IMG/VR virus record: IMGVR_UViG_2737471843_000003
Span: 1 to 14,020 of that record
Origin: a virus
Lineage: Duplodnaviria; Heunggongvirae; Uroviricota; Caudoviricetes
Direction: 5' to 3' (one strand)
DNA: 14,020 bases
A program made the translations under genes and the position numbers. The notes under the pieces are model-generated. The model was not told where the DNA came from. It did not search any database and was given only the letters and a program-made list of their open reading frames with translations. Positions 1 to 8,106 of this stretch are shown here, piece by piece; positions within the stretch are counted from its first letter, which is position 1; every line of letters begins with the position of its first letter.

Positions 1-342
1 ATGATGAAAAAAAGTATTCTGACGTTTCTGTTACTCACCAGTTCTGCAGCGGCGCTGGCTGCACCGCAGGTGATTACCGTCAGTCGTTTTGAAGTGGGTA
101 AAGACAAATGGGCGTTTAATCGCGAAGAGGTGATGCTGACTTGCAGACCGGGTAATGCTTTGTATGTCATTAACCCAAGTACCCTCGTGCAGTATCCTTT
201 AAACGATATCGCACAAAAGGAAGTTGCCAGTGGGAAGACTAAAGCCCAACCCATTTCGGTGATTCAGATTGATGATCCTAACAATCCCGGCGAAAAAATG
301 AGTCTGGCACCGTTTATAGAACGAGCTGAAAAACTCTGTTAA
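1..342 (+). CDS. yebY: Small secreted protein with N-terminal signal peptide, DUF2511/YebY-like
   Basis: ORF track 113 aa. The N-terminus [23 protein letters not shown] looks like a Sec signal peptide with an AxA cleavage site. I recognise the sequence as E. coli YebY from memory, not from a search. A hairpin plus T-run follows the stop. Confidence 0.6.
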
Positions 343-413: not shown

Positions 414-469
414 AACATTTCAGCTGATGACCACCACGCTTTTTATTGACCATTTTGCACGCAAACTGG

Positions 470-500
470 AAAACCTGGCGTCGTCATCTATTCTTAAAGG
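470..500 (+). promoter_or_regulatory. Sigma-S-type promoter for sdsR
   Basis: A -10 element TATTCT at 489-494 preceded by C at 488 (the -13 C typical of sigma-S promoters), placed 6 nt upstream of the proposed SdsR 5' end at 501. No convincing -35 element. Confidence 0.45.
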
Positions 501-569
501 GCAAGGCAACTAAGCCTGCATTAATGCCAACTTTTAGCGCACGGCTCTCTCCCAAGAGCCATTTCCCTG

Positions 570-603
570 GACCGAATACAGGAATCGTATTCGGTCTTTT
601 TTT
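570..603 (+). terminator. Intrinsic terminator of SdsR
   Basis: GACCGAATAC (570-579), loop AGGAATC, GTATTCGGTC (587-596), then TTTTTTT (597-603). Read directly from the sequence. Confidence 0.75.
581..603. other. Putative attL core, the last ~23 bp of sdsR
   Basis: A tyrosine integrase gene ends 130 bp downstream. The terminal 23 bp of ryeB/sdsR has been reported as a recurrent phage attachment site in Salmonella and E. coli. The exact crossover cannot be determined from one junction. Confidence 0.4.
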
Positions 604-640
604 AATTGTATTTAAAATCAATTAGTTGCAAACGTCTCCC

Positions 641-670: not shown

Positions 671-734
671 GTATTCCGGTCTTTTTTGGTTATATCACAA
701 CCAAAACACATTTAACAATCCATTTACGTTAAAA

Positions 735-1811
735 TCAGAGCAGTAAGTACGTTTTTTCTCTCTCATCAAGATACATTTTTGTTGTCTTCTCCGATGTGTG
801 GCCAAGTAGACGTTGAGCAAATTCTTCCCCACATGTTTCTTTGTACAATCGTCCAGCCAGGCTTCTGATCTCGTGAAAAGTTGGTGGGTTTTCACTGAAC
901 TGGATACCTGTTAATTTTCTGGCTGCGACAAATTTTTTTGTCAGGCCGTCCGGGTGAATGCTGCCGTCAGGGCTGTTTTTTCTAATCCCGGCACTGATTA
1001 GAAAATCTCCCCGGCTTACCAGGCGGCACCGTTCAACTACTGTACCAAGACGTAAACCAGCGACCGGAAGGCTGAGTGACAGGGGGATAGCAATCATCAT
1101 TCCTGTCTTAATTTGCCTGATGTGAAGACGATCATCATAAATATCACTGAACCGCATATTCGTTATGTCTTCGCGACGTTGTCCTGTTACAAGGGCTAAG
1201 TCCATAGCTAATGGGAACCATGCCGGAAGTTGATCTGCTGCCTCCCTGATGCAGTTGTATGTCTTTAGTTTCAGCCGTTCTCTTGTAACTACTATTTTCG
1301 GTGCTCTTGTTGGCGTTACTGGATTTTGAGATATACGCCCTTCAACAATGGCTTCGCGGAACATATCAGATAACACAGAACGCATTGATCCTGCCATCGT
1401 GTTTTTCCCTCCTTCAATCCACAAATCAAGAAACTCGGCAATATGGCGAGTGGTTATTTCTGTCAGTAAGATCCCTCCTAATTTTTCTTTTATTGTTTCC
1501 AGTTGATTTCCCCGAATTTTATAAGTATTTCTGGACACTTTTCTCCTTATAAGAATCGTTTTGTAACGTTCAATCCAGTCTGCCATAGTAAATGAGTCGA
1601 ACCCTTTAAGTTTTTCAATTAAGGCAGCAGGAGAGTAGTTTTTGTATATATAATGATTTGCTTCAATTGCCTGCGCGATTGCATCTCTTCTTGAAATTTT
1701 ACCTAGTGTAAATTCTTCTTTCGTAAGAGGGTTGCGCCAGTAATATGCTTTGTCCCTCCTTCGATATGTTAAGTTCCTAGGCAAATTGGGATCGTATTTT
1801 TTCCGCTGCAT
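735..1811 (-). CDS. int: Tyrosine recombinase, lambda Int-family integrase
   Basis: ORF track 358 aa. The N-terminus resembles the lambda Int arm-binding domain. The C-terminus carries the catalytic signature [11 protein letters not shown]...[15 protein letters not shown] (R, HxxR, Y). Its start overlaps the xis 3' end. Confidence 0.9.
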
Positions 1812-2058
1812 GTTTTAACTTCTCCAGTAACGGACTGTCTCTCCCTTGTCGCCCATTAGGCTGATGGTGTGTTATATCGGTATCAACCTTATTTGGGTTG
1901 ATATAGAAAGCCTCCGGAACCACCCTGTAACTCCTCCCGTGTAGTTCAGGTGCAGGATAAATGTTTCCATTCCTTGCCCATCGTCTCAGCGTTGATATTG
2001 ATGGTGGGTTATCCGGATATCTGAGTTTTCCCCACGTTTTGAGTGTCACAAGATTCAT
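1777..2058 (-). CDS. xis: Excisionase (Xis-like)
   Basis: The pattern VTLKTWGKL...STLRRWARNGNIYPAPELHGRSY resembles the lambda Xis winged helix. It overlaps int by 35 bp. I prefer the start at 2058 (AGAGG 7 nt upstream) over the track start at 2064. Confidence 0.7.
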   Translation of the reverse strand: MNLVTLKTWGKLRYPDNPPSISTLRRWARNGNIYPAPELHGRSYRVVPEAFYINPNKVDTDITHHQPNGRQGRDSPLLEKLKHAAEKIRSQFA

Positions 2059-2080
2059 TGCCATACCTCTTACGATATGA

Positions 2081-7697: not shown

Positions 7698-8106
7698 AAT
7701 TATCTCCATTTTTACAAATGAATTTTGTCGATGCGGTGCCTGGTGCCTCCAGGTGACGTTAACCAGTTAACAATTAACGCCGGATATTTCACCCATAACT
7801 CTGCTACGAAGGACAATAGCTTTTTAACTGTTCCGCGTGCGCTTAGCCGCATTCACCGCATCACAAAATTCACTTTAAAAAGGGGCGGCAGGGCAGCCAC
7901 GGAGTAGAACTGATGCCGCCAAAGACTACACACAGCAATGTCGTTATTTACAACCGGAGGCGCACTCCCACCATTTAAATTTAACAGACAAAACCGACTC
8001 TTTATGAATACCGGAAATGCGCCTTCGTGTTGTGCGCCTGTCTTTTTACCACTTCAGGCTCGGTGGTATACTGGAGTTCTCACACAACCAGTAATAAGGT
8101 ATTCCT

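Follow-up and report, generated by a model that had tools for sequence, protein, structure and literature searches.

A conserved C'-like copy of the SdsR terminator 3' half in the attP P' arm of sdsR-targeting lambdoid phages as a putative extra integrase half-site

The 3' end of the small RNA gene sdsR (ryeB) is a known attachment site for temperate phages. According to summaries of the Salmonella work, PhiW104 and other Salmonella phages and islands use the last 23 bp of ryeB/sdsR as the attachment site (PMC7380047, PMC3333887). In the 14,020-nt stretch of DNA analysed here (the window), sdsR and ryeA/sraC form a convergent sRNA pair following yebY, and the pair is followed by a Rac-like lambdoid prophage with int, xis, a RalA/ralR module, recT, recE, and DicF. 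A near-identical second copy of the SdsR 3' end is located in the prophage, a short distance beyond the end of sdsR. The original prediction offered three explanations for this copy: a core-like Int site in the phage arm, a scar left at this hot spot by a previous integration, or the true crossover. Which of the three does the second copy fit, and what kind of site is it?

The attL junctions of the window and ETEC4090 were aligned with attR (ETEC4090), attP (pPE4), and the empty attB (K-12) in a four-way alignment. The close set comprised 63 close E. coli relatives from IMG/VR. A wide scan, based on Int alignment with one genome per species, gave 64 loci with Int 35-94% identical; individual loci are referred to by L numbers. 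Segment conservation was calculated for 51 non-redundant loci from many Enterobacterales genera, with Int about 47-94% identical. For the chance test, matches with at most one edit to the 16-mer were counted on both strands of 1000 random sequences that had the length of the window and were drawn from a first-order Markov model. An edit-distance test was used because an ungapped mismatch scan is blind to the second copy, which carries a 1-nt indel.

The features of the locus are listed in Table 1. The sdsR flank was present in 5426 of 5426 complete E. coli genomes, and the int/xis module was at the same place in 228. Two further sRNAs found in the prophage, a full-length RalA antitoxin sRNA (2169-2347, 221 bits) and DicF (7883-7934, 61.6 bits), also occur in K-12 Rac and Qin.

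Table 1. Positions of the host and prophage features around the sdsR attachment site.
Feature	Position	Strand	Sequence or basis
yebY	1-342		First gene in the window
SraC/RyeA antisense RNA region	463-607	-	Rfam RF00101, 179 bits
sdsR (ryeB) small RNA gene	504-603	+	Rfam RF00111 (SdsR_RyeB), 118 bits, full length
B core-type half-site, host side (putative)	570-579	+	GACCGAATAC; 5' arm of the SdsR terminator stem
First copy	587-603	+	GTATTCGGTCTTTTTTT; C' core-type half-site GTATTCGGTC (587-596) plus T-run (597-603)
IHF consensus match, H'-like (predicted)	616-628	+	AATCAATTAGTTG; between C' and the arm-type sites
Three tandem arm-type repeats	P'1 639-648, P'2 649-659, P'3 660-669 (block 639-670)	+
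Second copy	671-687	+	GTATTCCGGTCTTTTTT
Parts of the second copy	671-681 and 682-687	+	C'-like half-site GTATTCCGGTC (671-681; +88 to +98 from the overlap centre); T-run (682-687)
Motif beyond the second copy	688-702	+	GGTTATATCACAACC; seen by eye just beyond the second copy
int, lambda-family heterobivalent tyrosine integrase, 358 aa	735-1811	-	Pfam PF00589, PF22022, PF09003
xis (excisionase)	1777-2064	-	Pfam PF07825, E = 6.5e-14; excisionase in RefSeq relatives

The resemblance between the two copies is real. GTATTCCGGTCTTTTTT (671-687) and GTATTCGGTCTTTTTTT (587-603) have 16 identical bases and differ by one extra C in the second copy, as originally described; in the half-site, 10 of 11 bases are as in C', with one inserted C. 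Both copies are on one strand, 84 bp apart from start to start, with 67 nt in between. A match of this quality to the 16-mer occurred in 0.2% of the 1000 window-length random sequences (both strands); when same-strand stretches of 200 nt with the local base composition were used, the frequency of a match with at most one edit was 5e-5. The Rfam match and a terminator scan identified the first copy as the 3' half of the SdsR terminator, consisting of the 3' arm and the U-tail. The second copy comes straight after the third arm-type repeat at the end of the tandem repeats (639-670), ahead of int (735-1811, minus strand). On both points, the original description was confirmed.

Int, Xis, and the predicted core and arm sites of attP make this recombination system lambda-like. 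The catalytic, central, and arm-binding parts of Int are all present; it scored 61 bits for PF00589 and 29.7 bits for PF09003, the lambda arm-binding domain (cutoff 22), and it also carries PF22022. Residues 8-353 aligned to residues 10-348 of lambda Int (structures 5j0n and 1z1b; E = 1e-71), and the identity to lambda Int was 39% (tblastn). By sequence, the hallmarks of a lambda-type system were found: an Int with an arm-binding domain, a shared segment with inverted half-sites, and arm repeats with a bending-protein site. The lambda attP has the order P1-H1-P2-X-F-H2-C-O-C'-H'-P'1-P'2-P'3. As in lambda, the sdsR phage has a full-length Int homologue with an arm-binding domain, an adjoining xis, inverted half-sites flanking 7 bp, an IHF consensus between C' and the P' sites, three P' repeats and two P-arm repeats, and an int gene that ends just past the P' arm.

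The P' repeats (CCCGAAATT, CTCGAAATTT, and CTCGAATTT) are located at +56, +66, and +77 from the overlap centre, and the P arm of attP contains two further arm-type copies, at -149 and -128. In six attP-type sequences, P' arm-type repeats were found at +55 to +77. P-arm copies were found near -149/-128 or -138 in three of the six, and L096 (Yersinia) had one at -128; none were found in Tbat2_3 or L097. A mirror-image C-like copy in the P arm was absent from all six. The IHF pattern WATCAANNNNTTR was located at +33 in the window, pPE4, L027, and L063-65. The orientation of the IHF match flips by clade, and in L096 the reverse complement of WATCAANNNNTTR is at +20.

The four-way alignment located the crossover. 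The 11-bp sequence ACAGGAATCGT (578-588) was the only segment common to attL, attR, attP, and attB. To its left, attL was like attB and attR was like attP. To its right, attL had the phage variants A589 and T598, and attR (ETEC4090) and the K-12 attB had the host G and C. Because parentage switches on both sides of ACAGGAATCGT, the exchange took place within 578-588, and the crossover must lie inside this segment. The comparison of attL with attR and an empty attB, which had been suggested for deciding between 581-603 and the second copy, thus confined the crossover to 578-588, and a true crossover at the second copy was refuted. The overlap is probably AGGAATC (580-586), the loop of the SdsR terminator, and we infer its exact length of 7 bp. 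The B and C' half-sites are inverted repeats 7 bp apart, and B is kept in the hosts. By analogy with lambda (PMC4880445), the stem arms and loop at 570-596 can be read as B-O-C'. The overlap covaries in phage and host, with AGGATTC in L130 and L140 and AGGACTC in L083. Left of the overlap in attP, the C half-site is weak and is not conserved between clades; the sequences in L001 (about 2966-2975), L078, L096, L097, and L130 are GACGAAAAC, CACAATAAAC, TTTCACCTTT, GCTCGATTAA, and AAACGCATAA. A core in which C' and the second copy are conserved while C is not is unusually lopsided for a lambda-type system.

The second copy is a lone half-site and not a recombination core, as no inverted partner half-site was found at a distance of 7 bp. 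The sequence to its left (CGAATTTCT) has no identity to the overlap AGGAATC; this position is occupied by the arm repeat P'3 (CTCGAATTTCT), and no conserved overlap-like sequence was found beside the second copy across clades. Lambda-family integrases require overlap identity (PMC4880445). Since no overlap likeness exists to the left of the second copy, an enzyme with this requirement could not cross over there. One locus, L007 (IMGVR_UViG_2728369554_000022), has a structure that could speak for a crossover at the second copy, instead of or besides 578-588. It has an exact 84-bp deletion between the copies, with one hybrid copy left. Both the IHF site and the three arm repeats are lost with the deleted DNA, and sdsR is joined straight to the flank of the second copy. 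This junction fits recombination or slippage between the copies, and excision should be disabled in such a prophage. The L007-type junction was found in no complete E. coli genome, and a longer query matched intact loci as two pieces only; therefore, the junction is rare or possibly an assembly error. L007 could be a locked-in prophage or an assembly error. Apart from this locus, only the likeness of the second copy to C' favours exchange at that point. L007 is a single contig, the second copy is missing from attB and attR, and parentage switches on either side of ACAGGAATCGT, the only shared segment, so we regard a crossover at the second copy as extremely unlikely.

The position of the crossover has consequences for the host sRNA genes. 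Comparison of attL, attP, and attB showed that the last 24 nt of sdsR (580-603) are phage-supplied in this lysogen; the 3' arm and U-tail of the SdsR terminator, which form the first copy, are rebuilt from phage DNA in place of the host sequence. This is exactly what is known from phages that restore the 3' ends of tRNA or sRNA genes. Unlike the gene-restoring parts of such attP sites, the second copy is unneeded for rebuilding sdsR and lies outside the Rfam-defined transcript. Lysogeny also alters the SdsR 3' end, from GTGTTCGGTCTCTTTTT-ATC in K-12 to GTATTCGGTCTTTTTTT-AAT in the lysogen; the terminator stem base is changed, and the U-tail is lengthened from five U in K-12 to seven. The altered stem base and U-tail could affect SdsR termination or Hfq binding. 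In the K-12 annotation, ryeA starts 38 nt past the sdsR 3' end; therefore, the prophage parts ryeA from its native promoter and 5' end. The minus strand of the P' arm contains a weak promoter-like match (TTTGCA-16-TACAAT, 632 to 605), which is not above shuffle expectation. As summarised in a review, ryeA is lower and ryeB is higher in PhiW104 lysogens (PMC7380047). The present site resembles the Salmonella PhiW104 sites in its target, the sdsR/ryeB 3' end antisense to ryeA; compared with the 23-bp core given in the summaries of the Salmonella work, the present comparison places the crossover within 11 bp, and the phage family is found in many Enterobacterales genera.

Tandem prophages were observed at sdsR in two genomes: L088 and L097, 41 kb apart in Serratia montpellierensis (NZ_VOSN01000022), and L140 and L130, 55 kb apart in S. 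aquatilis (NZ_CP173186). At the inner tandem junction, a phage P arm lies to the left of the core; therefore, attL, in which the intact target is rebuilt, had been reused as attB.

The second copy belongs to the phage. In the phage genome pPE4 (PP818812), which is 98-99% identical to this prophage end and has an intact attP, both copies are present and phage DNA lies to the left of the core. The second attP-type junction, L027, has the same arrangement with both copies. The attP of phage Tbat2_3, from a circular genome encoding an Int with only 51% identity, likewise has both copies. In the alignment, the second copy was found neither in the empty K-12 attB nor in the ETEC4090 attR. Since both copies are in the attP of free phages and the second is in neither attB nor attR, the second copy is part of the phage P' arm and not a scar. 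The suggestion of a scar or remnant att site left in the host chromosome by a previous integration is therefore not supported. We are confident that the second copy is a conserved element of attP that is carried by the phage, and that it is neither the crossover nor a scar. PP818812.1 is named 'Actinobacillus phage vB_Apl-pPE4', and it has an E. coli-type sdsR core with int and attP 98-99% identical to those of the E. coli sdsR prophage; the stated Actinobacillus host looks doubtful.

The second copy is conserved among close relatives. In the close set (n=63), the 17-mer was identical in 53 loci, one T shorter in 7, and one T longer in 1; of the remaining two, one lacked the extra C and was thus a perfect repeat of the first copy, and the other had a G-to-A change. 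The 11-nt non-T part varied in 2 of 63 loci, and 17 of the 35 columns of the spacer were polymorphic. In L063-L065, which come from other hosts and have Int 75% identical, the copy was GTATTCGGTCTTTTT or GTATCCGGTCTTTTT at a spacing of 84, with a very different spacer. In L084 (Salmonella, Int 72% identical), GTAATCCGGCCTTTTT was found at the same place. Relatives that use the same site and lack the copy would have been expected from chance similarity or a strain-specific scar; the opposite was found, as related prophages keep the copy, and it is also present in the related attP sequences of pPE4, L027, and Tbat2_3.

The conservation extends across genera. The 64 loci of the wide scan came from Escherichia, Salmonella, Buttiauxella, Serratia, Rahnella, Rouxiella, Yersinia, Brenneria, Pectobacterium, Erwinia, Pantoea, Kluyvera, Leclercia, and others. 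Nearly all were at the sdsR 3' end and had two or three arm repeats directly followed by a C'-like sequence. Over the 51 non-redundant loci, the second copy had 1.56 bits/position and 82% mean pairwise identity, compared with 0.95 bits/position and 56% for the arm block and 0.69 bits/position and 47% for the spacer. The start-to-start spacing of the copies was 83-86 bp, and it was 73-75 bp in two loci with only two arm repeats. Because the spacing is shorter where there is one arm repeat fewer, the second copy keeps its place relative to the last arm repeat. The int stop codon touches or overlaps the final bases of the second copy in several clades; the copy itself is non-coding. The second copy matched the C' of its own locus at 10 of 10 positions in 23 of the 51 loci and at 9 of 10 in another 11, giving 34 of 51 with 9-10 matches.

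The motif at 688-702 is common, as TTATAYCACA, to clades in which the int stop codon is about 50 nt past the second copy, and it occurs as (C)GTTATACCACA(A/G)C in L063/64, L082-85, L090, L103/104, and L131. On the minus strand, it resembles an extended -10 element (TGnTATAAC/G) directed at sdsR.

What kind of site the second copy represents was assessed from the way it varies relative to the arm repeats and to C'. The arm repeats differ by clade (CCCGAAAT, CTCGAAAT, TCCGAAAT, GTCCGAAAAT, ACACGAAAAT, and TATCGAAAT) and keep their position. Across these clades, the second copy stays (A/G)TAT(T/C)CGGTCT, which is the C'/B' sequence. L100 (Serratia fonticola) carries GTACTCGGTC as its first copy and ATACTCGGTC as its second, with one substitution common to the host stem, C', and the second copy. 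L099 (S. rubidaea) is not at sdsR. It has GATAGGTATACTTTTT at the C' position and GATAGTTACTTTTT as the second copy; this match was the best within 685 nt upstream, was located at the expected distance of 84, and was reached by 0 of 300 shuffles. The arm repeats and flanks of L099 remain like those of the sdsR-type relative L088. The unchanged second copy across arm clades and its joint change with C' favour a core-type site over an arm-type site. Agreement with C' is partial across the family. In three of the four off-site relatives tested (L123, L124, and L126), the second-copy position had no significant match to the presumed C'. A search for more L099-type phages gave no match with a DNA pattern and, with Int in IMG/VR, two identical matches, which end at the contig edge and include no att DNA. 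C' followed a changed host SdsR stem and the second copy did not in L105 (GTATTCAGTC), L107 (GTCTTTGGTC), L117/118/142 (GTTTTCGGTC), and L127/137 (GTATTGGGTC). In the clade with about 52% Int identity, the second copy is ATATCCTGTCT, with 7 of 10 positions as in C', and it is conserved within the clade. The second copy is phage-borne, fixed after P'3, and tends to follow C'; of the three original explanations, a core-like Int site in the phage arm is thus favoured. We put the probability that the second copy is an extra C'/B'-like core-type Int half-site at roughly 0.55.

The position next to P'3 could also suit an inverted fourth arm-type site for the Int N-terminal domain, or a site of Xis or a host factor. 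CGAA occurs both in the arm repeats and in the second copy read as its reverse complement (GACCGGAATAC), an imperfect dyad, CGAAT-N6-ATTCG, is formed by P'3 and the second copy, and the copy abuts P'3 in every clade. However, the arm bases flanking CGAA vary by clade, whereas the second copy keeps GACCGAATA(C/T) in all of them, and in L099 the copy changed together with C' while the arm repeats stayed the same as in L088. The second copy was therefore not classed as an arm-type Int site, as the arm repeats vary by clade and the copy does not follow, and we consider a fourth arm-type or accessory-factor site unlikely. CGAA is also common to the arm repeats and the core half-site (arm CCCGAAATTA, core GACCGAATAC); together with the dyad, this might point to an origin of the arm sites by duplication of the core. 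A functionless relic of an ancient duplication, or of a captured earlier attL, carried passively, would account for the lineages in which the copy is degenerate or lost (L107, L137, and the 7 of 10 positions in the 52% clade) and for the loss of the 84 bp between the copies in L007, which is expected of any direct repeat. The copy is, however, far better conserved than the non-coding spacer down to about 47% Int identity, keeps its exact position relative to P'3, lies outside the int frame except for the stop-codon overlap in some clades, and changed in step with C' in both L099 and L100. These observations make passive carriage quite improbable.

An RNA element would be a further explanation, either as the 3' half of a reserve terminator, acting on SdsR read-through or on late phage transcripts, or as part of an int mRNA 3' UTR complementary to SdsR. 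In the latter version, complementarity to the SdsR 3' end would couple int expression to SdsR or RyeA. Four to six T follow the copy in the window and in the clades with 60-75% Int identity, and the minus-strand RNA of 560-740 folds better than shuffles (z = -3.8), mostly through the SdsR terminator hairpin. However, no hairpin precedes the T-run; the T-run is missing in Tbat2_3 and the 52% clade, where it is replaced by AAAYC, and overlaps the int stop codon in the 64% clade; and the L099 copy moved away from complementarity to SdsR. The terminator scan found only the SdsR terminator (569-597) and none at the second copy. The plus-strand fold of 604-700 was not above shuffles (z = -0.46), and RNAalifold on 14 clade representatives gave zero pairs and no consensus structure. 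An intrinsic terminator at the second copy was thus rejected, given the lack of a G+C-rich hairpin and of a consensus fold and the unconserved T-run, and a role as an RNA element in general is judged very unlikely.

A core-type half-site in this place would set the sdsR phages apart from lambda. We know of no C' half-site repeat beyond P'3 in the lambda attP. None was found beyond P'3 in the HK022-type attP of mEp235 either, and the Int proteins of the lambda/HK022 type are 39-41% identical. Because the lambda and HK022 types do without the copy, it is not a general requirement of the integrase family. Unlike lambda, the sdsR phages have an 11-nt C'-like copy between P'3 and the int stop codon, their C half-site is not conserved between clades, and their core coincides with an sRNA terminator hairpin. 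No extra core-type site or repeated C' in a P' arm was found in the literature, in which the Salmonella ryeB-site study is represented by summaries. The sdsR phages would have a variant of the lambda-type attP to which a lone, conserved half-site resembling the core has been added.

As an extra core-type half-site, the second copy would be selectively maintained in the P' arm of attP, and hence of attL, in lambda-like phages that target the sdsR terminator. The C-terminal core-binding and catalytic domains of Int would recognise it in the same orientation as C'. Strand exchange would not take place there, because there is no overlap sequence and no partner half-site. In the lambda model, synapsis is preceded by the formation of only two of the four Int bridges (PMC4880445). 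On the basis of this model, it is plausible that the second copy holds an Int protomer in cis by its free C-terminal domain while the N-terminal domain of this protomer is bound to P'3, and such holding would stabilise or regulate the intasome. The second copy may then be a fifth functional core-type site, a lone 'half-attB' that docks the catalytic domain of an arm-bound Int and sets the readiness of the attP complex for attB capture or the commitment of attL to excision; this role is possible, and it is put forward tentatively.

The boundary and crossover (578-588) are now fixed for an sdsR prophage family that is very common in E. coli, including STEC, and in Enterobacterales. Lysogeny by these phages rewrites the tail of the SdsR terminator and removes the native RyeA promoter. 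The two copies form a direct repeat, and recombination between them would delete the arm sites and might trap the prophage in the chromosome. Lambda-type recombination is a textbook system, and a conserved extra half-site outside the lambda-equivalent minimal attP would be a simple natural variant of it, which could be used to probe the placement of arm-bound integrase protomers before attB capture and the tuning of directionality. If the docking role holds true, the second copy would represent a layer of control that is lacking in lambda and has been kept in the sdsR-targeting phages of many Enterobacterales.
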